Shown here: positions 1 through 61,629 of the stretch, one piece after another
How positions within the stretch are numbered: the stretch's first letter is position 1
How the letters are laid out: the number at the start of each line of letters is the position of its first letter
DNA from: Candidatus Nomurabacteria bacterium
GTDB taxonomy: Bacteria; Patescibacteriota; Minisyncoccia; Phycocordibacterales; UBA9973
Direction of reading: 5' to 3'
Assembly: GCA_023267435.1 (NCBI GenBank)
Contig: JAHFNH010000001.1
Location: 80,253 to 144,252 of the forward strand
Length of the DNA: 64,000 nucleotides
Program-made: the position numbers and the translations under genes
The notes under the pieces: model-generated
Told to the model about the DNA's origin: nothing
What the model saw: only the letters and a program-made list of their open reading frames with translations
Database searches by the model: none

Positions 1-2228
1 AAGACAAGAAAGAAGAAATAATAAAACTGGAAGAAGAACTTGAATATTTTTTTAATTTTATTCCAGATATGCTGTCTATCAGCTCGGCAGACGGATACTT
101 CAAAAAAGTAAACAAAGAATGGGAGCGAGTTTTAGGCTATACGGAAAAAGAATTGTTGGCGAAGCCATTCATAAATTTCATCCACCCAGATGATGTGCAA
201 CCAACACTTGATATTATCGCTAAACAAGCTGTTAAATCAAACGTCCTAAATTTTATAAATCGTTATCGTGCCAAAGATGGATCTTACAAATGGTTTGAAT
301 GGACATCGGCGCCCGCAAAACAAAATGGAACGATATATGCCGTGGCCCGTGATATCACTAGTCGCAAATTAATAGAAATAGAGATCGTTCAAAAGAATCG
401 CATGTTACGAATATTGAGTAACATAAATCAACTATTAATTCATGCTAAAGATGAATCTTCATTATTAACGGAAGCTTGTCGTATTATCAACGAAATTGCA
501 GAATATCGGATGTTGTGGATAGGTTTTAAAGAAAATGACAAGAAAAAATCAATCAAACCGGTCGCTGTTATCGGTTTCGAATCCGGCTTTATTGAGTCTA
601 TACATCCAACATGGGAAGATGATGAAAACGGACATATTCCGGCTGGTATAGCAATACGCACAGGAAAAATGTTCATCTCTCAAGATATTTCTTTAGAATC
701 CTTTCCGGGCCATTGGAAAAATATTGCTTTGGAACACGGATATAACTCCGTCATTTCTTTTCCATTAAAAAACGGCGATCAAACCTTTGGCAGCCTTACT
801 ATCTTTGGCGATAAGAAAAATCATTTTTCTGAAGATGAAATAAAAATTTTGGACGAATTAGCGAATGACTTGGCTTTCGGAATTATTTCTTTACGAACAA
901 TTTCTGAACGCAAAGCACTAGAAACTGAATTACTGAAAGCAAGTGCTGACAGATATAAAGCGCTTTTCCTATCTTCCCGTGATGCTATCATGACGCTTGA
1001 ACCGCCGTCTTGGAAATTCACTTCTGGCAATCCTGCAACTATTAAAATGTTTCAAGCAAAAAATGAAGGTGATTTTCTAAACCACGAACCTTGGATTTTG
1101 TCTCCAGAATTTCAGTTGGACGGAAGCCGTTCAGATGAAAAAGCAAAGGCTATGATAAACCACGCGATGGAAAAAGGAACAAATTTATTTGAATGGACAC
1201 ACAAAAGATTGAACGGCGAAGAATTTCCAGCGGAAGTTTTACTGTCAAAAGTTCAACAAAATGGGAATTCCTATCTTCATGCCGTTGTCAGAGATATAAC
1301 CGAACGTAAAAAAATGGAAGAAAAATTAAAAGAATATGCGGAAGAGAAATTCAAGGCTATTTTTGATAATACATTGGATGGAATTCTCATAGCAGATGTG
1401 AAGACGAAAAGCCTTTACCTCGCTAACCCTGCACTTTGCAAAATGGTCGGCTATTCTCTTGAAGAAATTCAAAAAATGAATATTGCAAATATTCACCCGA
1501 AGGAAAACTTACCATATGTCATGGATAAATTTGAAAAACAAGTACGAGAAGAAATTAAGATGGCAGAAAATATTCAAGTTAAAAAGAAGGATGGTGGTCT
1601 TATTTATTGCGATATTAGTGCATCCCCAATAACACTATATGGGAAGAAATACCTTTTGGGTATTTTTAGGGATATTTCTGAACGCAAAAAAATGGAAGAC
1701 AATCTTCTTAAAAGCGAAAAGCATTACAAAGAAGCTCAACGAATAGGGCGTGTGGGCAGCTGGGAGTGGAACATAGCAACCGATACCATCATTTGGTCTG
1801 AGGAGTATTACGAACTTGTCGGTTTTGATCCAAAAAAATCTCCGCCAAATTACGCAGAGCATTTAAAAGTTTACACTCTCGAGAGCCAAGCACGATTAGA
1901 TGCTGCCGTAAAACACCAAACTAAAACTGGCCAGCCATACGAAGTCGATTTAGAATTTGTTAACCCTAAAAGTCCAACTCGATGGATTACAGCCCGCAGT
2001 GAAACTGTGTATGACGATAAGGGAAAAATTATCGGATTACGCGGAACAGCGCAAGATATTTCTTTGCGCAAAAAGGAAGAAGAAGATTTAAGAAAAACAA
2101 AAGAAAAATTACAACAAGAAATCATTGAATTGGAGAGATTTCAATCACTCGCCGTGCATCGAGAGCTGAAGATGGTTGAATTGAAAAATAAAATTAAAGA
2201 GCTCGAAGAAAAACTATTCGTAAAATAA
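1..2228 (+). CDS. Multi-domain PAS/GAF sensor protein, 5'-partial. The reading frame is open to the window start and there is no kinase or other output domain.
   Basis: Four PAS/PAC-like blocks (e.g. RDITSRK, VVRDITERK, FRDISERK, AQDISLRK) and a GAF-like block, followed by a C-terminal coiled coil. The frame upstream of the first ATG at 69 has no stop codon back to position 3. Confidence 0.7.
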   Translation, partial: DKKEEIIKLEEELEYFFNFIPDMLSISSADGYFKKVNKEWERVLGYTEKELLAKPFINFIHPDDVQPTLDIIAKQAVKSNVLNFINRYRAKDGSYKWFEWTSAPAKQNGTIYAVARDITSRKLIEIEIVQKNRMLRILSNINQLLIHAKDESSLLTEACRIINEIAEYRMLWIGFKENDKKKSIKPVAVIGFESGFIESIHPTWEDDENGHIPAGIAIRTGKMFISQDISLESFPGHWKNIALEHGYNSVISFPLKNGDQTFGSLTIFGDKKNHFSEDEIKILDELANDLAFGIISLRTISERKALETELLKASADRYKALFLSSRDAIMTLEPPSWKFTSGNPATIKMFQAKNEGDFLNHEPWILSPEFQLDGSRSDEKAKAMINHAMEKGTNLFEWTHKRLNGEEFPAEVLLSKVQQNGNSYLHAVVRDITERKKMEEKLKEYAEEKFKAIFDNTLDGILIADVKTKSLYLANPALCKMVGYSLEEIQKMNIANIHPKENLPYVMDKFEKQVREEIKMAENIQVKKKDGGLIYCDISASPITLYGKKYLLGIFRDISERKKMEDNLLKSEKHYKEAQRIGRVGSWEWNIATDTIIWSEEYYELVGFDPKKSPPNYAEHLKVYTLESQARLDAAVKHQTKTGQPYEVDLEFVNPKSPTRWITARSETVYDDKGKIIGLRGTAQDISLRKKEEEDLRKTKEKLQQEIIELERFQSLAVHRELKMVELKNKIKELEEKLFVK

Positions 2229-2636: not shown

Positions 2637-3053
2637 ATGAGATCTCTTTTATTTCATTGTAAAGATTTTGGTTCGGTAATAACTGGTCTTTCTACAAGAC
2701 CAGAGAATATTGTTCATGGAGATATTTTAGATGAAAAACAATCATCTCATGATTGCATTCTCGCTTTTGTCACAATTGAAAAAGGTGATACGATAGAAAA
2801 ATCATCAAAACTTACACAAGAAATACTTAAATTTTGTAAAGACACAAACCATAATAATGTTTTTCTTTGTCCTTTCGCTCATCTTTCAAATAATCTCGCT
2901 CCAGCAAAAGAAGCCATAATTGTTTTGGAAAAGATTGTTAGTGAATTAAAAAATTCTGATGTTCATCTGACTGAGGGACACTTTGGCTCAGACAAAGAGT
3001 TACTAATTCACCTCTTTGGTCATCCAGGTAATGCAAGATATCGAGAATTTTAA
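2637..3053 (+). CDS. Free-standing archaeal-type ThrRS editing domain-like protein (tRNA-Thr_ED / DTD-like fold)
   Basis: Blocks MRSLLFHCKDFG, ILAFVTIEKGD, NVFLCPFAHLSNNLA and GHPGNA resemble the archaeal ThrRS N-terminal editing domain as I recall it. At 138 aa the size also fits. Confidence 0.4.
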   Translation: MRSLLFHCKDFGSVITGLSTRPENIVHGDILDEKQSSHDCILAFVTIEKGDTIEKSSKLTQEILKFCKDTNHNNVFLCPFAHLSNNLAPAKEAIIVLEKIVSELKNSDVHLTEGHFGSDKELLIHLFGHPGNARYREF

Positions 3054-3713: not shown

Positions 3714-4511
3714 TTAAAATTTTAAAACTTCAAAAATATTTTTATCGTAATTCCATTGAACGGTAACATCATCTGATATATCCTTTTCATCGTTACTTAC
3801 CAGATTTACCATAAAAGAATCTTTATCTGTTGTTGAAATTTTATATCCATAAAAATTAGAAGTAACAGGAATTTCTGTGTCTTTGTTAATTTGATTAAAA
3901 AAACCTTTATCGTTTATTTCGTAAAATAAAATGTTTTTTCCGTCAATTTCCTTTACAACATAGATATTAGAAAATATATTTTTACCTATATCCACATAAG
4001 ATACATATATACTTCCAATAAGATCTTTCTCATCAAATAAATTATCTAACCAAACAGCTTCTCTCCCATCTATTATAATTTTAGGGTCTGGTTGCCAAAT
4101 AGACATAATAATCCTATCTTGTGCACATTTTATTAGTTCTGAATTTATTTCTTGTATAAATTTACCACCTTTCTTTATTCTCTTTTCCATTATAAATGGT
4201 CCATAGTTTGCTTGTATATAATTGTGATCCTCGATTACTTCCTGAAGCTTTTTTGCATCTAAATTATTAACAGAAATAGGTATTCCATTTACTTCATTTA
4301 TCTCAACTGCTTCCCACTCGCTTTCAGGAAATAATGATGAATTCACTTGTTCTAATAATCTTAAACATTCCGAAGGTTTGTTTGTGTAACCATCTTCTTT
4401 TACCCTAAGATGTTTATCTTGTAAGATAAAAACAAAAGTAATAATAAAAAGAATTAATACGAAAATCGAAGAAATTATCTTTCCAAGGTCTTTATTTGAA
4501 ATATTTTTCAT
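3714..4511 (-). CDS. N-terminally membrane-anchored hypothetical protein, candidate second immunity/accessory protein for the RHS toxin
   Basis: N-terminal TM (IISSIFVLILFIITFVFIL). Lies downstream and co-directional with the RHS gene. Confidence 0.4.
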   Translation of the reverse strand: MKNISNKDLGKIISSIFVLILFIITFVFILQDKHLRVKEDGYTNKPSECLRLLEQVNSSLFPESEWEAVEINEVNGIPISVNNLDAKKLQEVIEDHNYIQANYGPFIMEKRIKKGGKFIQEINSELIKCAQDRIIMSIWQPDPKIIIDGREAVWLDNLFDEKDLIGSIYVSYVDIGKNIFSNIYVVKEIDGKNILFYEINDKGFFNQINKDTEIPVTSNFYGYKISTTDKDSFMVNLVSNDEKDISDDVTVQWNYDKNIFEVLKF

Positions 4512-4971
4512 ATTCAGATTCTATGACTGTCATATCCACTTTTAGTGGATCTTTTTTTCCATCAAATAAAATCACTCCCCAATCATTCAAATTAATTTTT
4601 TCTCTATCTATTATAATTTTTTCTCCACTATCTTTTGTAAATTCTATATATCTTTTAATAGTAAAAATAGTTTTAATATTTTGTTTATTTAAAAAATTCC
4701 ATGCCAATTTCTGATAATACTGGGAATCAGCGACATATTCTTCGAGCCCTTTTCCATTTTCCTTGTTCATTTTATTAACCTCTGTTTCATTGGGTCCCAA
4801 AAACACTCCAACAATACCGTTTATCTGCAATGTATCATCTAAAGAACTTTGATTTTGAGTTTGATTATTTATAATATTGTTTTTTATATTTGTATTTAAT
4901 AAATAACCGAATAAGATTATTAATAAAATTGGTATAATTATTTTTATTATTTTTTTTGATTCAAGTTTCAT
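4492..4971 (-). CDS. N-terminally membrane-anchored hypothetical protein, candidate immunity protein
   Basis: Start MKLESKKIIKIIIPILLIILFGYLL lies 4 nt after the RHS stop (TAA-TAAT-ATG). Signal/TM anchor followed by a soluble domain. Confidence 0.45.
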   Translation of the reverse strand: MKLESKKIIKIIIPILLIILFGYLLNTNIKNNIINNQTQNQSSLDDTLQINGIVGVFLGPNETEVNKMNKENGKGLEEYVADSQYYQKLAWNFLNKQNIKTIFTIKRYIEFTKDSGEKIIIDREKINLNDWGVILFDGKKDPLKVDMTVIESEYEKYFK

Positions 4972-4975
4972 ATTA

Positions 4976-7900
4976 TTAATTTTGTAAAATATTAAATCTT
5001 CGTAAATATTCATTAGGATTATGTTGATAAAGGCCATTGTCTATATGAACACCATCTACTCTATTAAAATCACCACCCCATCGAAGTCCGGAGTCATTTC
5101 TAACATCTCCAACAAAACCTTGAACTGGGTTTGGTAAAGAATTAAAACCTGAATTTAAACACGAGCTACCACACATAATATCTTTGTTATTATTTTTATA
5201 TTGAATATTTACATCAACAGCAGTACCAACATAATGAGCTGAATTTTCAGTAACTTCACCTTGTTTATGGTAAACATCTCCTGGTATTGGATCTCCTTTA
5301 ATTCTAACTCCAGAACTTTCTATTTGTAATTTTACATCATTTTTACCAGCATATTGATTCAATCTATTGAGATCTTTAGTAAAATCCACAGGTACTTTAT
5401 TTGTTGAATTAAGAAAATTGTTTCCTTTATAATTCACTAATGTAGTGCCAGAATCAGAAGTTGAAGTTTTTTGCCCAGATAAAACAGTTTGAGTCGAACC
5501 CTTACTAAGGAAAGAGTTAATCGAATTCAAAAAAGATTTTATTGCTGAAAGAACTGCTATTTTTCCACTTGGATCTTTCATATTCACCGGATTGTCTCTA
5601 GCATAACTATAACTGTTTTGCTGTTGAGGATCAAGAAGAAGTTCCTGTGGCAATTGCCAAAACATCGAATCTTGACTGATGAATTGCCCAACACCAGCTT
5701 TATAATATCTGGCATTTAGATAATCCAATCCCGTATCGGTATCATAAACCTGCCCGATATATTGCCTCTGAGTATTATATGTTCCTGAAGAAATTCTTTG
5801 ACTGCCGAATGGGAAATAATCCAAAAGCTGAACGCTTGTGCCAGTGGTGTTTGAAACGACATTCGTCGAACCTAAATGATCCGTATGCACATAATACGGA
5901 GTCACCACACCACCGACTGTTTCAACAGTTGCGACAAGCTGATCACCAATATAAATACTTTTAGTTTTTTTAGTTCCGTCCGTATTGTAGAAATTATTTG
6001 GATAATAAGTATTTACACTTCCCTTTTGCATTCTCACGCGATTGCCGGCATTGTCGTATTGATAAACTAGTGTGATTGAATTTTGCACTGGCTGAGCAAT
6101 AGGAGATCTGGAATTCGACAAGTTCACATTCTTTGTCACTTGAACTAACTCATTTTTATAATTCCAAGTATTTATGATAGTTCCGTCAGTTAATAAATTT
6201 CCATTTTTATCATAGGTATTCGTCACGCTATTTATCGAGGTAGCAGCATGAGGGTTCGCATAATTTGTGCCGGTGTTACCCTGATAAAGGTAATTTCCAA
6301 CATCAGATTTATTTAAAATATTTCCAACTGCATTATAAGTGAAATTCTGAGTGTAAGGTGTCTGACCTGCCGGCACACCCGTGGCAAAAGCTACAACTAA
6401 ACGATTCAAGTCATCATAAGCATACACGACATTTTTCGTGGCACTAGTATTTGAAGTATCGATAATTTGAATAATATTATTATCCATATCATACGTGTAA
6501 ACAATATTCTGTAAACTTATTCCATTTCCATTTGTTGTAAACTTATTACTCAAACGATACATTTGTGATGCATTATAAGTATTTGTGGTAGTGGTACCAT
6601 TTGCATAATTAATCACTGCGACCTGATTCATTGGAGAATAATCAATATTAGAAATAACATTCGTGAACGAGCCAGCATTTTCTTTACGCTCGATTTGATT
6701 CAAAAGTCCGGCAGTGTTAAATGTATATCGCACTTGAGCATTATCCGGGTAAGTCATTATAGTTACATTTCCCTGCTCGTCGTATACATAAGAAGTTACA
6801 AAAATATTGCTATTTATCGTCTTGGTTTCGCTGGTAATATTTCCATTTGAGTCATAAGTATATGAAATATTGGCACCGGACGGCATCACAATTCCACAAA
6901 TTTTACTGATACCATTCGTGCAAGAATCATAGAAATAAGAAATTTCTGTGCCTGTCGCACCGGTATAATTTTCTGTCAGCATGCGGTTAAGAACATCAAA
7001 AGTATAATTTGTTGTTTTAGCTTCCGGACTAACAGATTGTGTCATATTCCCCGCATTATCATAAGCATATGTCCATATGCCGAAAGTCGTATCGCCAGGA
7101 GTGTGTAAATCTTCGGCTGTTAATCTGCGTCCAAGTCCATCATAAGTAAAGTTGCGAACATTACTCAATGCATCGGTAATATTTTTTACTTTGCCATTTA
7201 AATTCCAAGAATATGCCGTTGTGTAAGTCGAGCCTGAATTATGTTCATCTACTCGAATTAAATTTCCACGCGCGTCACTGTATGTATCTTTTATTTTTCC
7301 GCGCGGATCAGTCACGGATATTTTCCAGAGATTGTAAACATAACTTGTCGTTCCGACAGAATTTACTGAGTTCAACACACGACCCATTGGATCATATATA
7401 TATATTGTGTAGAGAGAAACATTTGTATTTGGAAAAGTTTTTACTAATCCAGTTCCAGTGTAAGGCAAAGATTGTTTTTGAATCATTCCGAGATTGTTAT
7501 AGACATAATCGCTCACGTTAAAATTGTTTGATGTTTCAGTTTCCTTTCTGTTTTGAATAATTCTTCCCAATCCATCGAAGTATTGATATGTGTCGACAGA
7601 ATTTGAGGCATTCAGATAATCTGTTTTATGAATAGAAACCGCACCGGCAATGTCTGTGTAAACATATGCTGTTTTTGTGACAAGAATTGAAGGTGTGATT
7701 AGGTCAGGAACTTTTTCCACAAGCACTCGGTCGAGTCCGTCATATTCTGTCTTGTAAACAAAACCATTTTGATCAGTTATTTGTTTTGGCTTACCGAGCG
7801 AATAATTATATAAATAATTCACAGAGTGGTTGAGCGCATCAGTGACAGTGGCGGGATATAAATGGTACGAATCATAAGAATAAGAAGTCACATGGCCATT

Positions 7901-10900
7901 CTCATCAGTCAACGAAACGACATTGCCATAAACTCCGTCATAAGATTTTTGCGTGTTTACAAAAGTTATGCCAGTCAGCCATTTTTCTATTTTGGTTTGA
8001 TTGCCCAGGCCGACAGAACCCAGCGCCAGTCTGTCGTAATAATTGCGAGTTTCATTCACTTTCGCCCCATTCTGGTCAAACACTGTATCATCATACGGCA
8101 AGCCAGTGACATTGTTGCCAGTGTTTGCAATATACAAAATATTTTCAATTGATTTATCAGAACCAATATCGGTAAATGAACCATCGGTATTTGCCGTCAC
8201 CTCTCCCCAACTAGTTTTTTGAATTAAATTTCCATAAACGTTGTCGTAAGAATATTCTTCAGCTGTGTCTCGGTGACTACTAGTGCCATCATAAGTCAGC
8301 GCAGTCGTGCTAGTAAGTTTTACAAATTTATTGCCATTGCCTAAATCATAATCATCCCATTTATTTACAACAACCGAATACAAGTTGGTAGAACTGTCAG
8401 TTTTCTCTATCCTGTATGGTTGTCCGATTTTCCATTCGTCATCATTATATTCTCCATGAGAAGAATCTGTGCCGATCCCAGTATGATAATACGTCGCAGT
8501 TGTATTTCCAGCCGGATCTGTTTCAATCACTTTATTAAAACCGGCAAATTTTCTGTCGGTACTGCCGTTGAAAAAATACGATCCTCCTTGATAACTATAT
8601 GTGGTCGTTCCAGTATTTCCGTTTCCATCATTAGTGGTGATTTGATATGTTGTTGGCAAATTAAGCGGTAGACTTGGATTCAAGAGGTTCCCATTTCCAT
8701 CTTTATAGTGATTGCTCATTTTATAAGTAACATTTGTTTGCCCGCCGGTTGGAAGCGTGATAGAGGCAAGCAAGTCTACCGGAAGGGTTGTTTTATTAAA
8801 AAACACATTATTAGTTATATGATTAGTAATACCATCAAAATAATTACCTTGATTTAGAATATCCGCCTGACCATCACCGTTTGCATCAAATAGCAGTCCG
8901 GGATTTAAATCAATATAGTCATTTATTCCCAAGTTAGCACCCGTATTCCAATTAATATCCCAAACCCAGCTATGTCCCTGGTTGATATACACCTTAAGAT
9001 TGGTACAACTTGCGCCACAAGCTCCACCAAGTTGATATGGGTAAAGAATATCAACCAAACCATCGCCATTGATATCTTGAAAAATTTCCCGATTAAAAAC
9101 ATTTCCATTTTGAGTACGAGTTAAAATAATAAAATCTGAAGGAAGAGTGTAACTGGAATCTAAAACCCAACCTGTACCTGTATTTAAATAAACTGACTGA
9201 AACATTCCAGAGGGTTGTGCGGGTGGCACTCCGTAAGTTGATTTGATTATGTCAGCCAAACCATCACCATTCACATCAGCAAACACTTGGTCATTCAAAA
9301 ATTCTGGACTTGCAAAAGTCTGACCTACAGAAGCATTATATGTGCTGAAGTTAGAGCCCGTATCCCATGCAATACTCGTCGTCACAGGTGATGGCCAGAC
9401 AGAAACATCTTTAATATAATCAGAAAAACCATCGCCGTTTAAGTCGGCAACAGCCTGCGGATAACTAAAAGGAGGATTCCAACTTGGGTTCGCAGTCCAG
9501 CCTGAACCATTATTAAGATATGAAGCTTGAGCTCCCCAAGATGAATAAGGGTCGTTACGAACCATATCGTTCAACCCGTCACCATTCACATCTATAACTT
9601 TCGTACTAGCATCTCCCCAACCGTTGTTGTCATGCCGAGCAATCCATATATCGGAAGGAACCGAACGAGAAGTGTCCAATTGCCAGTTGTCAGATGATGG
9701 ATGATATAAATATATTCCCTTTGCAGAATTATAATAATAATCAACATTATTCCATGCTTGAATTAAATCAGTGTAACCATCGCCGTTCACATCGGCTGGG
9801 ATGGTTCCATTATGCGTATCAATAGGGATATATGTTGAACTTTGATTTGAAGGAGTAAAGCCAGAAGTGCCTTGTGTATATGAAAAAGAAGTTGCAGGCA
9901 AAGTCGTCACAGTACCATTAGTGTCTTGACCGGACTCTATTATACTTGAGAGCAAAGAGCGATTGGTATTAGTGCCAGCTATATAATTGAAAACATATTT
10001 CGAAGTCCAAGTGCCATTAACTTTCACATCGATCTCATTGATTAAATAATTGGTGGTACTTGGGAATCCAGCCGCCGCCGACATCATCGCATCAGATCGT
10101 GAAGAACTTCTCAAAAAATCAATTTCAAAAATACCACTACTTGCGGAGTGATTGGAATACGTTATTGTTGCAGGATATATTTGACTGGAATTTTTGTAAT
10201 AAGTGTAAGATATGAAATTTCCATTCGTGTCTTGCACGCTCTCCAGCATCCATTTGTAAACATGAGAAAAATTATTCGGATCATCCTGCCTTGTATTTGT
10301 ATTCGTTCCAAAAGTATAAATCGTTCCTGTCTTATCTGTAACCGTCCACATATTGCTACTAAAACTATATTTCAAAAAATCTCCTTTTTCTATTTTAGAG
10401 GCATAAGTACCGCCAGAAACATTTACCAAGTCCCCTGACAAACTGGAAGAAAAATAATTATCTGTAAATAAAGTGTTGGTGCCTTTTTTATTCACTCTTT
10501 GAATGTAAGGAATATTCATTGACCAGCCATATCCGAAAACACTATCTTGAATTAAATTTTGACTGTTGTACTGAAGAGATAAATTCGGCTGCGTATTATT
10601 GCGACCAGGTGGAACGGCAATAGTATAACTGTAAACCAATGCCCCAGTCGAAGGATCTGTTTGGGCAATACTTTTTTTAACATTAGCATACTCGTTTGTT
10701 TGATTCATTGGGCTGACAGTGGGATTGGGACTTTTATTTTTTTCAACAGTAGGTGTTAGTGTGTCTTCACTGGAAATAGTTCCTCCACTTGGTGCATCTT
10801 TTTTTATTGCAGAAATATTGTCTGTCGCTGTCACTTTTGCATTTATATCTTTCGCTGATAAATCAGGTAGAGCAACATCAGTAGTGTTCGTATCTGAAAC

Positions 10901-11053
10901 ATTACTTGATGGCGCACTTTTAGTACCATCTGTTTTAACAGAAGCATCTTGCGCGAAAGTTATAGGCGTGAGAGAAATAAAAAAACCTAAAACAAGAAAG
11001 AAAACTACAGCTCTAACTAACACTAACGAACATAAAAATTTCTTTATATTCAT
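4976..11053 (-). CDS. Giant secreted SpvB/FG-GAP/RHS-repeat polymorphic toxin (Tc-toxin BC-like) with a C-terminal M15/LAS zinc-peptidase-like toxin domain
   Basis: N-terminal signal peptide and SpvB-like block PNLSLQYNSQ..GYGWSMNIPYIQR. Six DxNGDGxxD FG-GAP/VCBS motifs and many YD/RHS repeats (YTYDGLGRR, YAYDNAGNMT, YQYDNAGNRV). RHS core YYVHTDHLGSTN...YYKAGVGQFISQD and autoproteolysis-type motif NMKDPSGK. The tail has SAHYVGTAVD and LRWGGDF..DGVHID. Confidence 0.85.
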   Translation of the reverse strand: MNIKKFLCSLVLVRAVVFFLVLGFFISLTPITFAQDASVKTDGTKSAPSSNVSDTNTTDVALPDLSAKDINAKVTATDNISAIKKDAPSGGTISSEDTLTPTVEKNKSPNPTVSPMNQTNEYANVKKSIAQTDPSTGALVYSYTIAVPPGRNNTQPNLSLQYNSQNLIQDSVFGYGWSMNIPYIQRVNKKGTNTLFTDNYFSSSLSGDLVNVSGGTYASKIEKGDFLKYSFSSNMWTVTDKTGTIYTFGTNTNTRQDDPNNFSHVYKWMLESVQDTNGNFISYTYYKNSSQIYPATITYSNHSASSGIFEIDFLRSSSRSDAMMSAAAGFPSTTNYLINEIDVKVNGTWTSKYVFNYIAGTNTNRSLLSSIIESGQDTNGTVTTLPATSFSYTQGTSGFTPSNQSSTYIPIDTHNGTIPADVNGDGYTDLIQAWNNVDYYYNSAKGIYLYHPSSDNWQLDTSRSVPSDIWIARHDNNGWGDASTKVIDVNGDGLNDMVRNDPYSSWGAQASYLNNGSGWTANPSWNPPFSYPQAVADLNGDGFSDYIKDVSVWPSPVTTSIAWDTGSNFSTYNASVGQTFASPEFLNDQVFADVNGDGLADIIKSTYGVPPAQPSGMFQSVYLNTGTGWVLDSSYTLPSDFIILTRTQNGNVFNREIFQDINGDGLVDILYPYQLGGACGASCTNLKVYINQGHSWVWDINWNTGANLGINDYIDLNPGLLFDANGDGQADILNQGNYFDGITNHITNNVFFNKTTLPVDLLASITLPTGGQTNVTYKMSNHYKDGNGNLLNPSLPLNLPTTYQITTNDGNGNTGTTTYSYQGGSYFFNGSTDRKFAGFNKVIETDPAGNTTATYYHTGIGTDSSHGEYNDDEWKIGQPYRIEKTDSSTNLYSVVVNKWDDYDLGNGNKFVKLTSTTALTYDGTSSHRDTAEEYSYDNVYGNLIQKTSWGEVTANTDGSFTDIGSDKSIENILYIANTGNNVTGLPYDDTVFDQNGAKVNETRNYYDRLALGSVGLGNQTKIEKWLTGITFVNTQKSYDGVYGNVVSLTDENGHVTSYSYDSYHLYPATVTDALNHSVNYLYNYSLGKPKQITDQNGFVYKTEYDGLDRVLVEKVPDLITPSILVTKTAYVYTDIAGAVSIHKTDYLNASNSVDTYQYFDGLGRIIQNRKETETSNNFNVSDYVYNNLGMIQKQSLPYTGTGLVKTFPNTNVSLYTIYIYDPMGRVLNSVNSVGTTSYVYNLWKISVTDPRGKIKDTYSDARGNLIRVDEHNSGSTYTTAYSWNLNGKVKNITDALSNVRNFTYDGLGRRLTAEDLHTPGDTTFGIWTYAYDNAGNMTQSVSPEAKTTNYTFDVLNRMLTENYTGATGTEISYFYDSCTNGISKICGIVMPSGANISYTYDSNGNITSETKTINSNIFVTSYVYDEQGNVTIMTYPDNAQVRYTFNTAGLLNQIERKENAGSFTNVISNIDYSPMNQVAVINYANGTTTTNTYNASQMYRLSNKFTTNGNGISLQNIVYTYDMDNNIIQIIDTSNTSATKNVVYAYDDLNRLVVAFATGVPAGQTPYTQNFTYNAVGNILNKSDVGNYLYQGNTGTNYANPHAATSINSVTNTYDKNGNLLTDGTIINTWNYKNELVQVTKNVNLSNSRSPIAQPVQNSITLVYQYDNAGNRVRMQKGSVNTYYPNNFYNTDGTKKTKSIYIGDQLVATVETVGGVVTPYYVHTDHLGSTNVVSNTTGTSVQLLDYFPFGSQRISSGTYNTQRQYIGQVYDTDTGLDYLNARYYKAGVGQFISQDSMFWQLPQELLLDPQQQNSYSYARDNPVNMKDPSGKIAVLSAIKSFLNSINSFLSKGSTQTVLSGQKTSTSDSGTTLVNYKGNNFLNSTNKVPVDFTKDLNRLNQYAGKNDVKLQIESSGVRIKGDPIPGDVYHKQGEVTENSAHYVGTAVDVNIQYKNNNKDIMCGSSCLNSGFNSLPNPVQGFVGDVRNDSGLRWGGDFNRVDGVHIDNGLYQHNPNEYLRRFNILQN

Positions 11054-41392: not shown

Positions 41393-43096
41393 TTGGTAAT
41401 GGCATTATTTGATGAAGAAAAACAAAATAAACAGCTGGATGACTTGCACAAGCAAGAAGAAGAACAGTTGGTGGCAGTTTTAGCCGAATCAAAATATGGA
41501 TTGCCTTATGTGGATTTATCCCGTATTGGCGTAGACAATGAAGCACTCCGAGCTATAGACGAACAAGGTGCGCGTGAAATGAAAGTCGCACCCTTTAAAC
41601 TTTCCGGAAAAAATATTTTTATAGCCGTCCGCGCGCCCTCAGAAGAACTTTTAGGAAGTTTGAAAGAAGACATGGAAAGAAAAGATTTAATTCCTACTTT
41701 TTACATGGCGTCATTAGCCAGCTTAAATAAAGTTTGGGACAGATATAAGGAAATTTCACTAGCTGAAAGCTCAAAAATCGGAGGAATAGATATTTCCGGA
41801 GAAATTTTAGCAGAGACGGCAAAAGACATACAGAAAATGCAGGATATTGAAAAACTAATAACCGAAGCATTAGAAGGAAAACAAATCCATAAAATATCTC
41901 ACATTCTTGAAATAATACTCGCGGGTGCTATCGCAATCAAAGCTTCTGACATACACATCGAACCAGAAGAAGACCGCGGAAGACTCCGACTCAGGCTCGA
42001 TGGTGTTCTCCAAGATGTAATGTTTTTCGGAATGGATATCTATCACCTTCTCAACTCTCGTATTAAACTTCTTTCTGGAATGAAGCTGACTTCAAAAATA
42101 GCACAAGACGGACGCTTTAGTATTATGGAAAAAAACGAAGAAATAAGTATTCGTACTTCGCTTATTCCAGGTTCATACGGTGAATCAATCGTTATGCGTA
42201 TCTTGGATCCGAAATCCATTCAGCATGAATTAGAAGAAATGGGAATTGAACCATTCCTTTTTTCAATAATTCAGCAAGAAATAGCCAAGCCAAACGGTTT
42301 GATCTTGGTGACTGGTCCGACTGGTTCCGGAAAAACGACGACTCTTTATGCCTTTCTGCGCAAGATATATTCTTCGGAAATAAAGATAATCACCATTGAA
42401 GATCCTGTCGAATATCATTTAGCCGGTATAACTCAGACCCAAACAGATTCAAAAAAGGGATACACTTTCTTAGAAGGTTTACGCTCAGCTCTTCGCCAGG
42501 ACCCAGACGTGGTGATGGTCGGAGAAATCCGCGACGCGGAAACAGCCAAGATCGCAGTGGAATCTGCTTTGACGGGTCACTTGGTTTTCTCAACACTTCA
42601 CACCAACAATGCCGCTGGTGTTATTCCCCGTCTGATCGACCTTGAAGTTAATCCAAAAATAATGGTCTCAGCTTTATCTCTCTCAATAGCTCAGCGTCTC
42701 GTGCGTAAATTGTGCGAATTTTGCAAAAAAGAAAAAACTCCCACTGAAATGGAAGCTAAGAGTTTAAAACTTGTATTGGATAGTATAAAAGAAGAAGGAA
42801 AAGATTTATCGAAATATAATATAGATCCAAATGCGACATTTAAAATATTTGTAGCTGTCGGTTGTGAAAAATGTAACATGACAGGTTACCACGGCAGAGT
42901 TGGTATCTTTGAAGCTATTAAAACAGACGAAGCAATCGAAAAAATAATTCCATTAAATCCCAGCGAGCGCGAAATAAAAAAAGTTGCGCGAACACAAGGA
43001 ATACTTTCTATGCGCCAAGACGGCGTAGTGAAAATCTTAAATGGTGTTACTTCAATAGAAGAAGTGCAAAGTGTTGTTGATTTGAACGAAGAATAA
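41393..43096 (+). CDS. pilB: Type IV pilus/type II secretion assembly ATPase (PilB/GspE family)
   Basis: GSPII_E N-domain, Walker A GPTGSGKTTT, Asp/His boxes, tetracysteine CEKCNMTGYHGRVG. Confidence 0.85.
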   Translation: MVMALFDEEKQNKQLDDLHKQEEEQLVAVLAESKYGLPYVDLSRIGVDNEALRAIDEQGAREMKVAPFKLSGKNIFIAVRAPSEELLGSLKEDMERKDLIPTFYMASLASLNKVWDRYKEISLAESSKIGGIDISGEILAETAKDIQKMQDIEKLITEALEGKQIHKISHILEIILAGAIAIKASDIHIEPEEDRGRLRLRLDGVLQDVMFFGMDIYHLLNSRIKLLSGMKLTSKIAQDGRFSIMEKNEEISIRTSLIPGSYGESIVMRILDPKSIQHELEEMGIEPFLFSIIQQEIAKPNGLILVTGPTGSGKTTTLYAFLRKIYSSEIKIITIEDPVEYHLAGITQTQTDSKKGYTFLEGLRSALRQDPDVVMVGEIRDAETAKIAVESALTGHLVFSTLHTNNAAGVIPRLIDLEVNPKIMVSALSLSIAQRLVRKLCEFCKKEKTPTEMEAKSLKLVLDSIKEEGKDLSKYNIDPNATFKIFVAVGCEKCNMTGYHGRVGIFEAIKTDEAIEKIIPLNPSEREIKKVARTQGILSMRQDGVVKILNGVTSIEEVQSVVDLNEE

Positions 43097-45822: not shown

Positions 45823-47022
45823 TTATATTATCTTTATAAATCTTCTCTTACCTATCTTGTACACTCCGGGAATCGCCATTATTTTAAAATCAGTAATTTT
45901 CTCTTCACTATGTTCAATTAATCTTTTAACTGCACCTTCATCAACAAGCCTGCGCCATTCACTCTTTGATGCTACGATTTTATTTTCAAATAAAACATCC
46001 ACCATTAATTCTCCTGTTTTATGTTTTACTTCTTCTATATCATCTGGAATTTCTTTTTTTTGAAAAGTATTAACGAAATTTTCTTGGGCTTCTTTTGCTT
46101 TTTTCTCTCCGTGATAAATTTTTACAATTTCTTCAGCTAGTTTCATTTTAAAATCTTTTGGATTTACACCATCTTGCATTTGTTTTTCAAAATCTTTTAT
46201 TTGTTCCAAGGAAACATCAGTACAGAGTTCAAAGCCTTTCAGAATTAAAGAATCGGTCCAGCTCATAACTTTACCAAACATTTCATTTGGCTTATCTTCA
46301 AAAGAAACCATATTGCCTTCTGTCTTGCCCATCTTTTTTCCAGAATTATCTTCTAGAAGTTTCATGGCTACGACAGATTTGTCTTTTTTTAATATTTCAG
46401 AAACTAACTCTCTTCCCATTAACATATTAAATGTTTGATCATTTCCACCCACCTCAACATCAACATTCATCGCGACACTGTCATAGCCTTGCATCAATGG
46501 ATACATAAACTCATGAATAAAGATTGGCTTGCCTTCTTGATTTCTACGGGCAAACATATCTCGTTTTAACATCTGATCGACTGTAACTCTTGAGGCAAGA
46601 TTTAAAACATCTTCAAAATTCATTTTCGCAAGCCATTTAGAATTAAATTTAAATTGCGCTTTATTTACACCAGTAAATTTTAAAAATTTTGAAGCTTGTT
46701 TTTTATATTTTTTTAAATTTCCCAGAACTTCTTTTTTTGTGAGCTGTTTTCGTGCTGCCATTTTATCAGTCGGGTCTCCAATCATTGCTGTAAAATCTCC
46801 CATCAATAAAATAACTTCATGACCTAAATCTTGAAATTGCTTTAATTTCATTAAGGGAATAGCGTGACCCATATGCAGAGTCGGACCAGTCGGATCTATT
46901 CCTAAATAAACTTTAAGCTTCTTACCTGAAAGAAGCTTTTGTTCCAAAGTCTCTTTGACGAAGATATTTTCAACTCCTCTCTCGAGTACGTTTTGAATTT
47001 TTTCATCCTTGCTTATTTTCAT
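45823..47022 (-). CDS. tyrS: Tyrosyl-tRNA synthetase
   Basis: HIGH-type LHMGHA, KMSKS-type KMGKT, C-terminal S4-like domain, about 400 aa. Confidence 0.8.
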   Translation of the reverse strand: MKISKDEKIQNVLERGVENIFVKETLEQKLLSGKKLKVYLGIDPTGPTLHMGHAIPLMKLKQFQDLGHEVILLMGDFTAMIGDPTDKMAARKQLTKKEVLGNLKKYKKQASKFLKFTGVNKAQFKFNSKWLAKMNFEDVLNLASRVTVDQMLKRDMFARRNQEGKPIFIHEFMYPLMQGYDSVAMNVDVEVGGNDQTFNMLMGRELVSEILKKDKSVVAMKLLEDNSGKKMGKTEGNMVSFEDKPNEMFGKVMSWTDSLILKGFELCTDVSLEQIKDFEKQMQDGVNPKDFKMKLAEEIVKIYHGEKKAKEAQENFVNTFQKKEIPDDIEEVKHKTGELMVDVLFENKIVASKSEWRRLVDEGAVKRLIEHSEEKITDFKIMAIPGVYKIGKRRFIKII

Positions 47023-47061
47023 ATAATGGATTATAACATGTTTTCTGCTATGATTAATATC

Positions 47062-49578
47062 ATGAAGAAAATATTAAAAAATAAGCATTTAATGAAGAAC
47101 TTGGCATTATTTTTCGCTGGGGGTTTCATTATTTTGACCGGTGCATTGATTATCTTTATTTCTACCATCAGAATCCCTGATTTTCATTCTTTTGAAGATA
47201 GAAAAGTTATAAATTCTACTAAAATATACGATCACACTGGAGAAATTCTTTTGTACGATATTCACCAAGATGTGAAAAGAACAAATATACCATTCGAACA
47301 AATGGGTTCCAATATAAAAAATGCTACTGTCGCGATTGAAGATTCTGAATTTTATACTCATGGTGGAATACGAGTTACTTCCATTATCCGAGCGCTTCTT
47401 TCAAAATTATTTCATGTTGGAATAGGAGGCGGAGGTTCGACAATAACCCAACAGTTGGTAAAAAATACTCTTCTAACACAAAAAGTTAGCTATATTCGAA
47501 AAATCAAAGAATGGGTTTTGGCGATCAAAATAGATCGATCTATGCCTAAAGAAAAAATATTGGAATATTATTTAAATGAAATTCCTTATGGTGGAAATAT
47601 TTATGGAATAGAAGCAGCTAGTAAAACTTATTTCAATAAAGACGCTCAAGATCTGACATTAGCAGAATCAGCGTATCTAGCTTCTATCCCCCAATCTCCA
47701 ACCACACTTTCTCCTTATGGAAAAAATAAAGACAAACTAGAGAATCGAAAAAATTTAGTATTGTCTAGAATGAAAGATCTTAAATTCATCACAGTAGATG
47801 AATACAATAAAGCAAAAAGTGAAGTTGTGACTTTTCAACCACAAGCAACTGGTGGTATTAAAGCTCCTCATTTCATATTTTTTATAAAAGATTATTTAGA
47901 AAATAAATACGGCGCAGATATGGTGGAACAAGGTGGCTTAAAAGTGACCACCACTCTAAATTATGACTTACAACAAAAAGCAGAACAAATCGTAAAAGAA
48001 GGAGCTCTTCAAAATGAAAAAGATTGGAATGGTAGCAATGCTGGATTGGTAGCGATCGACCCTAAAACAGGACAAATTTTAACCATGGTCGGCTCACGAG
48101 ATTATTTCGATAAAAATATCGATGGAAATTTTAATATCGCGACAGCCACCCGACAGCCAGGTTCCTCTTTCAAGCCTTTTATTTACGCTACAGCCTTCAA
48201 CAAAGGCTTTACACCTAACTCTGTGCTCTTTGACTTACCAACAGAGTTTCAAACTACCTGTGACGCTTATGGCAAAGCATTACCAGGACATAATCAAAAA
48301 GATTGTTACAAACCAGATGACTATGATGGAAAATTCCGTGGACCGATGACCTTGCGTGATGCACTTGGACAATCAATCAACATTCCGGCTGTAAAACTAT
48401 TTTATCTAGTGGGACTGAAAGACGCATTAAAAACTGCCGAAGATATGGGCATCAGTACTCTTGGTGACTCAAGTCGTTATGGACTGACTTTGGTTATCGG
48501 AGGCGGAGAAGTAGAACTCTTAGATATAACTTCTGCTTATGGAGTTTTTGCTAATGAAGGTATTCGAAACCCAGCGACAGGAATTTTAAAAGTTGAAGAT
48601 TCAACTGGAAAAATTTTAGAAGAATTTACCCCAAACCCTCGAGAGGTTTTGCCAAAAAATACTGCTTTAACTATTTCTGATGTCTTGTCTGACAACACTG
48701 CACGCACGCCGACTTTCGGAGCGCATTCTGTATTACAAATCCCTGGCAAAGATGTCGCAGTGAAAACAGGAACCACTAACAGCAACAAAGACGCGTGGAC
48801 TGTCGGCTACACACCATCAATCGCCGTCGGTGTCTGGGCTGGAAACAATGACAATAAGCCAATGAAAAAAGGAGGTTCCGCCGTCGCAGGGCCTATTTGG
48901 AATAAATTCTTAATCGAAGCTATGAAAATATTACCAGATGAAAAATTTGAAAAACCAAACTTAGAAACAGATCCTCATGTGGTGAAACCAGTAATTCGTG
49001 GATTCTGGCAAGGAAATGAAAATTTCTTTATTGATAAAATTTCTGGAAAATTGGCGACTGCTAATACTCCTAAGGAAACAAAAGTAGAAAAAGTAATAAC
49101 GAACGTGCATTCAATTCTTTACTGGGTGGATAAAAAAGATATCATGGGTCCACCTCCAACCGACCCAACTAATGATTCTCAATTTAGTCATTGGGAAATT
49201 CCAGTGCAAAATTGGTGGGCAAAAAATAGTGCTAATTATCCAAAGATAACTTTGGCTGATAAACCAACTGCCTTAGACGATGCGCATACTGACGCCAATA
49301 AACCTGTCGTGGCAATCACAATACCAGACACAACCACTACCTACCCTGCTAATCAAAAAATAACATTGGGACTTTCCAGTACTGGACATTTCCCATTGCA
49401 AAAAATAGATATCTTTATTAATGATGTTTATTTAGGAACTTCTAAAACACCAATTAATTTCTCTTTCACTCCATCCGAACTCGACAACCTAAAAGAAACA
49501 AATGAAATAAAAATTATCTCCTACGACACTGCGTATAACAGCAGTGAAACTACTTCTACTTTTAATGTAAGTCAATAA
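47062..49578 (+). CDS. Class A penicillin-binding protein (glycosyltransferase plus transpeptidase, PBP1A-like)
   Basis: GT51 motifs EDSEFYTHGGI and GGSTITQQL. TPase SxxK in ATRQPGSSFKP, and KTGT. The start is moved to MKKILKNK so that it does not overlap tyrS. Confidence 0.85.
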   Translation: MKKILKNKHLMKNLALFFAGGFIILTGALIIFISTIRIPDFHSFEDRKVINSTKIYDHTGEILLYDIHQDVKRTNIPFEQMGSNIKNATVAIEDSEFYTHGGIRVTSIIRALLSKLFHVGIGGGGSTITQQLVKNTLLTQKVSYIRKIKEWVLAIKIDRSMPKEKILEYYLNEIPYGGNIYGIEAASKTYFNKDAQDLTLAESAYLASIPQSPTTLSPYGKNKDKLENRKNLVLSRMKDLKFITVDEYNKAKSEVVTFQPQATGGIKAPHFIFFIKDYLENKYGADMVEQGGLKVTTTLNYDLQQKAEQIVKEGALQNEKDWNGSNAGLVAIDPKTGQILTMVGSRDYFDKNIDGNFNIATATRQPGSSFKPFIYATAFNKGFTPNSVLFDLPTEFQTTCDAYGKALPGHNQKDCYKPDDYDGKFRGPMTLRDALGQSINIPAVKLFYLVGLKDALKTAEDMGISTLGDSSRYGLTLVIGGGEVELLDITSAYGVFANEGIRNPATGILKVEDSTGKILEEFTPNPREVLPKNTALTISDVLSDNTARTPTFGAHSVLQIPGKDVAVKTGTTNSNKDAWTVGYTPSIAVGVWAGNNDNKPMKKGGSAVAGPIWNKFLIEAMKILPDEKFEKPNLETDPHVVKPVIRGFWQGNENFFIDKISGKLATANTPKETKVEKVITNVHSILYWVDKKDIMGPPPTDPTNDSQFSHWEIPVQNWWAKNSANYPKITLADKPTALDDAHTDANKPVVAITIPDTTTTYPANQKITLGLSSTGHFPLQKIDIFINDVYLGTSKTPINFSFTPSELDNLKETNEIKIISYDTAYNSSETTSTFNVSQ

Positions 49579-50761: not shown

Positions 50762-51859
50762 TTAACGATTCATCGGCATTATAAGGTAAAGGAATGAAGG
50801 ATCAGAAACTCCAGAAACAACTATCGGACTGGAAGCTTGATTAAATTTAATAGAAACGCTATCGGTGGTGATTGATTGAAAACAATCCAGGAAATATTTG
50901 TAATTAAAACCAAGTTCTACTTCTTCTCCAGTCAGTGCGGCGTCGAGTAAAGTTTTATTCTCTCCCACGTCGTTGTTTTGGGACGACAATTCAAAAATTT
51001 TCTCTTTTGGTCTGATACTCAAGTTCACTTGATTAAACTTGTCTGAGAAGATATTTGAGAGCTTAAGGGCATTCAGCAAATCTTGCTTCAACACCACTGC
51101 TTCAGTCTTTGATTCTTTAGGAAGGATCTGTCGATAATCAGGAAAAACTCCATCAATCACTCGAGAAGTTAAATAAGTATTATTAGAAGAAAATGAAATT
51201 TGATTTTTATTAAAACAAACCTTTATTTCACCAGAAATTTCTCCGAAAACTCTTAATATTTCAGGAACATTTTTAAAAGGAATAAGAATGCCTGGAATTT
51301 CTTCTAAATTTTTAATTTTTACTTTCTTTTCGGCGAGACGGAAAGAATCTGTTGAAACAAAAACTAAATTATCTTCATTGGAATATATATAAACACTGGA
51401 TATTTCAGGCTTTATATCGGAAACAGAGGAGCTATAATAAACAGATTTTATGCCGTCGATTAATTTTTTAGCGTCTATTTCAAATTCCTTACCAGAAACT
51501 AGTGGGATAGTTGGAAAATCATCATGCAGCTGACCTTTTAATTTAATCTTACTTTTCTTTGTTTTAATAATTATATTTCCTTCTTCTCCTTGAATAGAAA
51601 CATTTTCATTTTGAATAACATTTGAAAAAATACCGGATAATACTGATCCATGAATAGCAGCTACGCCTTCCTCTTCTATTTTCGCTGGGATTTCTATTTC
51701 AATACCGAGGCTTAAATTCGTCGCACGAAGTTTTAAAGACTTACCTGTTGCTGTAAAAAGAATTGAACTTAAAACAGGCAGAGTTAAATTCTTTCCAGTT
51801 ATTCTTTCAACTTGATTAATTGCATTTTTTATTTTTTCTATTTCGCATTCTAGTCTCAT
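50762..51859 (-). CDS. dnaN: DNA polymerase III beta sliding clamp
   Basis: 365 aa with three-domain clamp features. Immediately downstream of dnaA. Confidence 0.85.
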   Translation of the reverse strand: MRLECEIEKIKNAINQVERITGKNLTLPVLSSILFTATGKSLKLRATNLSLGIEIEIPAKIEEEGVAAIHGSVLSGIFSNVIQNENVSIQGEEGNIIIKTKKSKIKLKGQLHDDFPTIPLVSGKEFEIDAKKLIDGIKSVYYSSSVSDIKPEISSVYIYSNEDNLVFVSTDSFRLAEKKVKIKNLEEIPGILIPFKNVPEILRVFGEISGEIKVCFNKNQISFSSNNTYLTSRVIDGVFPDYRQILPKESKTEAVVLKQDLLNALKLSNIFSDKFNQVNLSIRPKEKIFELSSQNNDVGENKTLLDAALTGEEVELGFNYKYFLDCFQSITTDSVSIKFNQASSPIVVSGVSDPSFLYLIMPMNR

Positions 51860-52128
51860 ATGTTTATATCTTATATATTTAATTTATTAATACTATTAGT
51901 AGTGTTGATAAGTGTATAAGTATATTAAATGTTTATTTATATAATTATTTTTAATATTTTATTTTTACTTTATCCTGATAACTTTTTAACTTATTAACAT
52001 ACTTATTTAACATCTATTTTTATTACAATATTTATTCTTTATTTTTCCTTAACTTATTATCTACTTATAATTTTTTTATTAACAGTTTTATTTTATTTAT
52101 TATTTGTTTTTCACCTACTTATCAACAA
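51860..52128. promoter_or_regulatory. Putative oriC (AT-rich DUE flanked by inverted DnaA-box variants)
   Basis: TGTTGATAA at 51902..51910 and its reverse complement TTATCAACA at 52119..52127 bracket a roughly 200-nt spacer of over 80% AT. A third TGTTGATAA lies at 53541..53549 upstream of dnaA. Confidence 0.5.
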
Positions 52129-57448: not shown

Positions 57449-57485
57449 CTTTCTTGCTATGTACTTTTTTAAAACACAAATAGAA

Positions 57486-58844: not shown

Positions 58845-58852
58845 ATTTTTTT

Positions 58853-60601: not shown

Positions 60602-60602
60602 A

Positions 60603-61589: not shown

Positions 61590-61629
61590 AAGGTTACTTA
61601 TATTGTAACATTTTATAATTTTTTTATCC

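Follow-up and report, generated by a model that had tools for sequence, protein, structure and literature searches.

The 64-kb window analysed here (64,000 nucleotides of contig JAHFNH010000001.1) carries on its minus strand, at 4976-11053, a gene for a giant RHS protein, followed by two smaller genes for predicted membrane-anchored proteins. The giant gene is a single uninterrupted open reading frame (ORF) with an ATG start and 2025 codons. Its product is built like the BC cocoon of toxin complex (Tc) toxins and works like an Rhs polymorphic toxin-immunity system. All parts of the protein described below lie on the same minus strand.

A predicted Sec-type signal peptide occupies aa 1-34 (MNIKKF...PITFA, followed by QD; 10952-11053) and was recognised by hydropathy and a family consensus. 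The highest hydropathy peak of the entire protein lies at aa 6-28, and the N-termini of relatives show a hydrophobic stretch and then a P...V.A.E consensus. Lipoprotein anchoring was considered and rejected on a reading of the sequence, in which a lipobox is absent and Cys8 stands too near the N-terminus. The signal peptide is followed by a low-complexity linker (aa 35-130; 10664-10951) rich in Ser, Thr, Ala and Lys (S13, T13, A10 and K10 per 95 residues), with no Pfam match. The part of the linker that falls within a structural model, from aa 120, has very low confidence, with model residues 1-8 at a predicted local distance difference test score (pLDDT) below 50.

An SpvB/TcB N-terminal domain then spans aa ~131-404 (9842-10663). 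Pfam SpvB (PF03534) matched aa 134-216 (E 2.5e-17; 63.5 bits, cutoff 22), the domain was modelled at pLDDT above 90, and the SpvB N-domain structure 6p0x was among the Foldseek matches, with a target-normalised TM-score (TMt) of 0.59. Motifs and Pfam matches place a six-bladed FG-GAP beta-propeller, the equivalent of the TcB 'gate', at aa ~405-760 (8774-9841). A regular-expression count gave exactly six D.NGDG..D motifs, at aa 421, 488, 537, 593, 660 and 723, which are nearly invariant in an alignment of 50 relatives; Pfam FG-GAP (E 2.9e-9) and FG-GAP_3 also matched. The propeller sits between the SpvB domain and the RHS shell and within the TcB-like structural alignment, and by this equivalence it may serve as the gate. 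The RHS/YD-repeat shell covers aa ~761-1745 (5819-8773), with matches to Pfam RHS_repeat (E 5.9e-22) and DUF6443 and to NCBIfam YD_repeat_2x, and was modelled as all-beta with pLDDT ~90. It leads into an Rhs-associated core (aa 1746-1831; 5561-5818) and a C-terminal payload (aa 1832-2025; 4979-5560), the latter made of a short linker and an M15/LAS zinc peptidase domain matching Peptidase_M15_4. The Pfam scan found no PAAR, VgrG or LXG domain in the protein. PF12256, which we take to be TcdB_toxin_midN, the signature of the TcdB middle region, was not reported in the profile search with the query at E up to 0.01; it is precomputed for many relatives.

A first-pass annotation of this DNA had described an SpvB-like N-terminal block, six DxNGDGxxD FG-GAP motifs and an RHS shell ending in DPxG. 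The profile matches and the motif count bear out the first two, and the strings it quoted (PNLSLQYNS, GYGWSMNIPYIQR and NMKDPSGK) all occur in the translation. The shell and its DPSGK are likewise present; the protein does not end there, and the 194 residues beyond DPSGK form the C-terminal tip. This payload, the immunity gene downstream and the Patescibacteria context had been missed.

The Rhs-associated core matched NCBIfam Rhs_assc_core (TIGR03696, aa 1746-1830, E 1.7e-15). It terminates in P-x4-DPSGK directly before I1832, with DPSGK starting at aa 1827. In 50 relatives the core has the consensus ARYYxxxxGRFxSQDP...LNSYSYARNNPxxxxDPxG, and D1795 and D1827 (D970 and D1002 of alignment A3) are nearly invariant. 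It has been documented that D651 and D674 of TccC3, together with a PxxxxDxxG motif, are needed for autocleavage, and that a positively charged P-1 residue is common in TccC (PMC7861908). The core motif and the positive P-1 residue found here agree with these rules. Catalytic roles are assigned to D1795 and D1827 because they are equivalent to D651 and D674 of TccC3 (PMC7861908), and by this analogy the core is a predicted aspartyl autoprotease that would cleave after K1831.

The fold was predicted with AlphaFold as two overlapping 1200-residue segments (aa 120-1319 and aa 826-2025), built with family alignments. The first model (mean pLDDT 87, predicted TM-score 0.88) found its best PDB matches exclusively among Tc BC cocoons (6h6e_F, 6suf_F, 4o9x, 6l7i_F, 5kis_A and 4igl), with query-normalised TM-scores (TMq) of 0.69-0.80 and E-values of 8e-54 to 1e-48 in Foldseek, whereas the Rhs proteins of type VI secretion systems (T6SS) and the teneurins reached only TMq 0.13-0.25. 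The second model had a mean pLDDT of 78, with the shell at ~90 and the final 195 residues at ~25. Its best match was TcdB2-TccC3 (4o9x) at TMq 0.70, despite disorder in 16% of the query, compared with TMq 0.44-0.55 for T6SS Rhs proteins. Because Tc BC proteins were the best matches for both halves and T6SS Rhs proteins and teneurins were worse, the modelled protein is a TcB-TcC-type cocoon, more than a generic RHS protein. The TcB-TcC fusion proposed in the first-pass annotation is thus upheld by the sequence domains and by both half-models, whose best matches are TcdB2-TccC3 and YenB/YenC. The fold matches of the two half-models imply a closed cage. The relationship to Tc proteins is visible at the fold level only: a PDB sequence search with the whole protein matched only T6SS Rhs proteins (RhsA, RhsP, Tse5, Tre23 and Tse15) and did not find TcB or TcC at E <1e-3.

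The YD shell fold is also that of teneurins and of a teneurin-like protein, so the protein might instead be a surface adhesin or recognition protein of teneurin type, its C-terminal peptidase being a housekeeping or wall-remodelling domain of the producer. The teneurin fold match, at TMq 0.1-0.4 over both models, is far below that of the Tc BC proteins, and the nearly invariant autoprotease motif also speaks against an adhesin.

The payload was identified from several profile comparisons. Peptidase_M15_4 matched aa 1935-2004 of the whole protein at 29.3 bits (curated cutoff 25) and the tip alone at E 7.8e-8. An exhaustive HMMER search of 1.84 billion representative proteins returned 302 relatives of the ~150-aa module, mostly at the C-terminus of proteins of 200-700 aa and in a few cases within giants of 1100-2200 aa. 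All of the aligned relatives of the tip (60/60) score Peptidase_M15_4. Their invariant columns are R86, H109, G112, D116, D169, H172 and D174, corresponding in the full protein to R1917, H1940, G1943, D1947, D2000, H2003 and D2005; the motif residues R1917, H1940, D1947, D2000 and H2003 are all intact in the tip. The tip-family profile matches Ply500 (2VO9), the L-alanyl-D-glutamate peptidase of Listeria phage A500, at E 1.4e-3, and the alignment spans the SNH-x2-G-x-A-x-D and WGGD...D-x-x-H motifs. By the residue roles that we assume from VanX and Ply500, the H-x6-D pair and the C-terminal His are presumably zinc ligands, accompanied by a catalytic acid and an Arg. From these profiles we conclude that the predicted cargo belongs to the LAS/M15 type of zinc peptidases and acts on peptidoglycan stem peptides.

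Like Ply500 and the VanX/VanY-type members of M15/LAS, the payload family combines SxH-x2-G-x-A-x-D, WGGD...D-x-x-H and an upstream Arg; unlike M15 endolysins and autolysins with a wall-binding domain, the enzyme is here the C-terminal cargo of an RHS cocoon. The tip relatives have PG_binding_1, PG_binding_3, SH3_3, LysM, GH108 and eCIS_core as partner domains, and the occurrence of M15 domains in autolysin-like architectures with PG_binding, SH3 or LysM would suit the wall-remodelling role that the adhesin reading gives to the peptidase. The domain of the extracellular contractile injection system, eCIS_core, is fused to the M15 module in 6 of the 60 relatives (P0131-P0190), and from these fusions a wall-cutting M15 module seems to be reused as a cargo or component of phage-tail-like injection systems.

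A PDB sequence search with the tip alone gave only an insignificant match to Sonic hedgehog (LAS fold), and a word-indexed search with the tip returned two relatives only, P0121 and P0122. The hidden Markov model (HMM) seeded with the tip did not detect the VanY/M15-tipped relatives P0016 and P0037, and for this reason their tips are assigned, on profile evidence, to a different M15 subfamily.

We then consider the family to which the protein belongs. The search with the 2025-aa protein gave 605 scored homologues, those listed at E = 0, the best non-self homologue being 56% identical. These homologues and the two confident structural models place the architecture far beyond chance. Among the homologues with a source name, 13 of 16 come from Patescibacteria lineages. 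When one genome per species was scanned, 297 genomes proved to contain relatives, and the best 80 of these loci, with 10 kb on either side, form the neighbourhood set to which the counts of related loci below refer. Within it, 64 of the best 80 relatives are labelled Patescibacteria (Nomura-, Gracili-, Sacchari-, Staskawicz-, Wolfe-, Ryan-, Kaiser-, Uhr-, Magasanik-, Doudna-, Falkow-, Lipton-, Sung- and Adlerbacteria, and others). The labels outside the Patescibacteria are Terriglobia, Bryobacteraceae, Bacteroidota, Methylocystis, 'Gammaproteobacteria' metagenome-assembled genomes (MAGs), one unclassified bacterium and one Methanoperedens contig. Judged by these labels, the producer is taken to be Patescibacteria-like, and hence a tiny bacterium that is probably a parasite.

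Over its whole length, the scaffold keeps 40-63% identity in 50 relatives. The tips after DPxG, 160-230 aa long, have 8% mean column identity over 78 relatives and fall into 21 Pfam families, in keeping with the polymorphic toxin that the first-pass annotation had proposed. Peptidase and related tips comprise Peptidase_M15_4/VanY, M23, NlpC/P60, CHAP, SLT, T6SS_Tse3 and a reprolysin-like peptidase; nuclease and toxin-family tips comprise Ntox44, Tox-REase-7, Tox-GHH, a ribonuclease and GIY-YIG. Alpha/beta-hydrolases also occur, and the majority of tips have no family match; envelope-degrading payloads are prominent among those that can be annotated. The commonest neighbour in the 80 loci is an orphan cassette downstream on the same strand, made of a core fragment and an alternative tip. 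Such cassettes account for 44 ORFs in 28 of the 80 loci and often stand several in a row with small ORFs between them. The 64-kb window holds one RHS copy only and no orphan core-plus-tip cassette. On these comparisons the assignment to a predicted Rhs polymorphic toxin-immunity family with a conserved scaffold holds.

Several related loci deserve mention in their own right. Arrays of at least 3 orphan cassettes, each followed by a small ORF, lie at 9851-23396 of L030, 14035-22548 of L044 and 9527-21136 of L078. Serine recombinases flank the relatives in 12 loci and IS200-type transposases in 7. On a contig of Candidatus Methanoperedens nitroreducens (NZ_FZMP01000168.1; L009, 6948-13907), a 2319-aa relative with 43% identity over its N-terminal 1200 aa carries a 189-aa tip and an adjoining 110-aa ORF without a hydrophobic N-terminus; its presence on an archaeal contig reflects either a binning contaminant or horizontal transfer into an archaeon. 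A Candidatus Sulfotelmatobacter MAG (L049, 7439-19654) encodes a relative of 4071 aa, ~2x as long as usual, that shares the core motif and has a tip of 221 aa. Some longer relatives carry Pfam accessions that we take to be of the LamG, carbohydrate-binding, Ig-like and SLH types, which is a point in favour of a surface adhesin.

The gene directly downstream in the window (4492-4971, minus strand) begins 5 nt past the toxin stop codon and encodes a 159-aa protein with a predicted membrane anchor (hydrophobic segment aa 8-26) and an acidic outward-facing domain. The isoelectric point is 5.3 for this ectodomain, compared with 8.5 for the payload. A counterpart of the gene was found beside P0121, a 320-aa orphan cassette on an unrelated contig (L004) that consists of a truncated Rhs core and the same tip (61% identity). 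The 155-aa gene directly after P0121 is 71% identical (E 2e-68) to the 159-aa gene of the window. Tip and neighbour gene thus travel as a unit, as toxin-immunity pairs characteristically do, and on this linkage the 159-aa protein is probably the cognate immunity protein. A word-indexed search with it returned two proteins. The genes downstream of P0016 and P0037 were considered as members of the same immunity family and rejected, at 17-29% identity to the window gene.

The second membrane-anchored ORF (265 aa; 3714-4511, minus strand) has an N-terminal hydrophobic segment and composite matches. The segment aa 45-141 matches ORFs that follow RHS genes in L031 and L026 (61-68% identity), and the segment aa 164-261 matches an ORF that follows a cassette in L028 (47% identity), all three being Patescibacteria loci. 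Judged by these matches, it is probably a fused or composite immunity gene, or an orphan one, with no matching toxin in the window. Neither the 159-aa nor the 265-aa ORF has a Pfam family match.

Across the related loci, an adjacent small ORF lies downstream of 72 of the 78 tips; a hydrophobic segment is present at the N-terminus of 43 of these ORFs. Envelope-acting tips (CHAP, SLT, three VanY/M15 and three alpha/beta-hydrolases) are followed by an ORF with a hydrophobic N-terminus in 8 of 8 cases, and tips tagged Tox-REase-7 or ribonuclease by an ORF without one in 4 of 4; Ntox44-, HNH- and GHH-tagged tips have mixed types. The pattern fits, as far as sequence comparison goes, a payload that acts and is neutralised outside the membrane. 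Further points speak against the teneurin-like adhesin: the tips are hypervariable and include the toxin families Ntox44, Tox-REase-7, Tox-GHH and T6SS_Tse3, and the tip is mobile together with its downstream gene and exists as an orphan cassette. We consider that explanation very improbable.

Compared with characterised systems, the order of parts is that of the Tc BC cocoons TcdB2-TccC3 of Photorhabdus luminescens (4O9X, 6H6E) and YenB-YenC of Yersinia entomophaga (4IGL): an SpvB N-domain, an FG-GAP propeller, an RHS shell, an Rhs core with two Asp and PxxxxDxxG, and a hypervariable tip of ~200 aa. Sequence identity to Tc BC proteins is ~15%, and the cocoon part, at ~1700 aa, is shorter than that of TcdB2 combined with the TccC3 core (roughly 2150 aa). 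Unlike TcdB2-TccC3 and YenB-YenC, the protein is one polypeptide. Natural BC fusions are known, for example in B. pseudomallei, and TcC homologues have been described as 'possibly delivered by other means' (PMC7861908). The Sec signal peptide, the Ser/Thr linker and the immunity gene also set it apart from Tc BC proteins, and no TcA gene lies nearby; its predicted payload is a peptidoglycan peptidase, whereas Tc payloads modify eukaryotic targets.

No TcA-like or TcA-sized gene was found within the 64-kb window or within 10 kb on either side of the 80 related loci, in agreement with the earlier remark that no TcA-like translocator is visible. This result bears on whether the protein is the BC component of a tripartite Tc (ABC) toxin, in which a TcA pentamer encoded elsewhere would dock on the propeller and inject a eukaryotic cell. 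In favour of such a toxin, genuine Tc BC cocoons, holotoxin entries among them, head the structural matches; TcC genes are known from 'orphan' loci separate from TcA (PMC11067744); and the genome was inspected in part, over the 64-kb window. Besides the missing TcA-like gene, several features argue the other way. The predicted target of the payload, peptidoglycan, is absent from eukaryotic cells, and interbacterial systems are typically marked by a cognate immunity gene and by orphan cassettes. A Sec signal peptide is present, which characterised TcB proteins are not known to have. Patescibacteria genomes are small and a TcA gene takes ~7.5 kb, so it would be conspicuous there. We therefore give the tripartite-toxin explanation very little credence, and do not file the protein as a Tc holotoxin component, because no linked TcA was found in the window or around the related loci and PF12256 is undetected in the query.

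The resemblance to Rhs toxins of T6SS lies in the RHS shell, the predicted Rhs core autoprotease, the variable C-terminal toxin and the downstream immunity gene, and the orphan tip-immunity cassettes of related loci are those of Rhs polymorphic systems. Unlike RhsA, RhsP, Tse5, Tre23 and Tse15, the protein lacks PAAR, VgrG and chaperone modules, is not accompanied by T6SS or type VII secretion system genes, and has an SpvB-plus-propeller half, for which the N-terminal TMq to these proteins is ~0.2. No VgrG/PAAR, LXG or CdiB gene was found in the window or beside the 80 relatives. The first-pass annotation had also likened the protein to Gram-positive WapA-like toxins. WapA of Bacillus subtilis is Sec-exported and has an RHS shell, a toxin and an immunity gene. 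In these respects, and in a producer presumably without an outer membrane, the likeness stands; WapA is without the SpvB and propeller module, and is therefore a loose analogue.

We also examined the large neighbours of the family. No large neighbour is conserved across the 80 loci, and the scanned neighbours of at least 1000 aa are RNA polymerase subunits, an AddA-type helicase, peptidoglycan-binding or carbohydrate-binding proteins, or proteins of no family. Smaller genes that recur in the flanks encode serine recombinases, histidine kinases, LexA, a DNA methylase, an IS200 transposase and MreB. A gene resembling the coupling protein of type IV secretion systems (T4SS) recurs near the relatives in 6 loci. 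This gene is one of the reasons to consider that a dedicated cell-to-cell apparatus, a type IV pilus (T4P) or a T4SS-like system, delivers the toxin and that the M15 tip is one of many cargoes and does not account for independence from TcA. Candidate components exist in the window itself: an ATPase of the pilus type (41393-43096) and, at 58853-63471, a VirB4/TraG-like ATPase together with an NlpC/P60 hydrolase. Such an apparatus would take payloads across the target envelope, as sister proteins tipped with Tox-REase-7, Tox-GHH, ribonuclease or GIY-YIG require, and the ORFs after the tagged Tox-REase-7 and ribonuclease tips are without a hydrophobic N-terminus. Against such an apparatus, no secretion apparatus is consistently linked to the toxin gene across the 80 loci, the Sec signal peptide favours general export, and a folded cocoon of ~200 kDa is too big for known T4SS or T4P channels. 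Apparatus-assisted delivery is the main rival explanation, and on balance we judge it unlikely.

Taken together, and with the whole mechanistic chain included, we think it probable that the protein is a TcA-independent, Sec-exported, single-chain BC-type Rhs polymorphic antibacterial toxin. The Sec pathway would export the 2025-aa protein, which would fold outside the cell. D1795 and D1827 would cut the payload free inside the shell, after K1831, and the cocoon would hold the lytic enzyme inert during passage of the producer's own wall. Contact with a neighbouring bacterium, whether host or competitor, would open the propeller end and release the peptidase, which would cut peptidoglycan stem peptides from outside the target membrane. 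A peptidase acting there would need no membrane translocator, if the target wall is exposed. The producer makes its own peptidoglycan (PBP1A) and so needs self-protection; the outward-facing immunity protein would neutralise enzyme that reaches the producer or its siblings.

A number of points weigh against this antibacterial-toxin reading. Export, autocleavage, encapsulation, release and activity are each inferred, and closure of the full-length cage is drawn from two half-models. The payload is modelled at pLDDT ~25, and its fold is taken from sequence profiles only. The TcA search in the protein's own genome spans 64 kb of a 242-kb contig, and the placement of the producer in the Patescibacteria comes from homologue labels. 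The rule linking payload type to the location of immunity is not clean, as Ntox44- and HNH-tagged tips also have ORFs with a hydrophobic N-terminus. Finally, the nucleases carried by sister proteins of this scaffold have to enter the target cytoplasm, and the family therefore has some membrane-crossing route that the proposed chain of steps leaves unexplained.

The rest of the window is bacterial chromosomal DNA of ~35% G+C. It encodes dnaA-dnaN (50762-53472), PolA, a class II ribonucleotide reductase, RuvB/RuvC, a tyrosyl- or tryptophanyl-tRNA synthetase and the pilus-type ATPase noted above; PBP1A (879 aa; 46939-49578) and PolA (807 aa) are the largest other ORFs. A run of genes all on the minus strand, at 55601-63471, comprises the VirB4/TraG-type P-loop ATPase (61630-63471), a protein of 582 aa whose C-terminal part is an NlpC/P60 hydrolase domain (58853-60601) and three large ORFs without a Pfam family (55601-57448, 57486-58844 and 60603-61589). 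The run resembles the monoderm-conjugation-like T4SS reported for Patescibacteria (PMC12102498).

On the plus strand, a stand-alone 138-aa protein (2637-3053) matches the Pfam 'Archaea-specific editing domain of threonyl-tRNA synthetase' (E 1.8e-20) and may be a free-standing trans-editing factor. An archaeal reading of the DNA based on this domain was rejected, given dnaA-dnaN, PolA, PBP1A, RuvABC-type genes and the pilus ATPase. A multi-PAS/GAF sensor (69-2228, plus strand; a 719-aa ORF in the window, 756 aa on the longer contig) lies on the strand opposite to the toxin-immunity gene run, ~2.7 kb past its end, and no output domain was recognised in its scanned part. The promoter and terminator scan was uninformative, with 49 promoter-like sites compared with 37 expected from shuffles.

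No study of this family in Patescibacteria turned up in the literature that could be searched; the nearest is a single sentence on a Saccharibacterium RHS/YD toxin with an immunity gene (PMC6031116). The protein itself is no surprise, because its domain architecture is already annotated in databases. What is unusual is the combination of a Tc-type cocoon, a Sec signal, an immunity gene, orphan cassettes and a peptidoglycan-hydrolase cargo, with no TcA, in many Patescibacteria, and this combination is not covered by any characterised system. Tc cocoons have so far been understood only as capsules that require the TcA syringe, and Rhs cocoons mostly as T6SS cargo. Here a Tc-type cocoon stands alone, with a Sec signal and an immunity gene, in hundreds of mostly Patescibacteria species.

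If the proposed mechanism is true, there would be a TcA-independent way of opening a Tc-type cocoon, a specific candidate for the means by which ultrasmall epibionts breach or damage the cell walls of host or competitor bacteria, and a compact natural single-chain BC scaffold for protein-delivery engineering. A wider idea, which we put forward only tentatively and regard as rather doubtful, is that Patescibacteria, and some other phyla, use a Sec-exported BC cocoon, independent of TcA, as a general contact weapon or host-breaching tool. Its gate would be opened by a target-surface cue in place of TcA, wall-directed cargoes such as the M15 peptidase would breach the wall of the host to serve epibiotic feeding, and nucleases would enter by a cocoon-intrinsic route or one assisted by a pilus or T4SS. 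Were the contact-weapon reading true, it would reveal a new mode of delivery for Tc/Rhs cocoons and provide a molecular handle on how epibionts attack their hosts.

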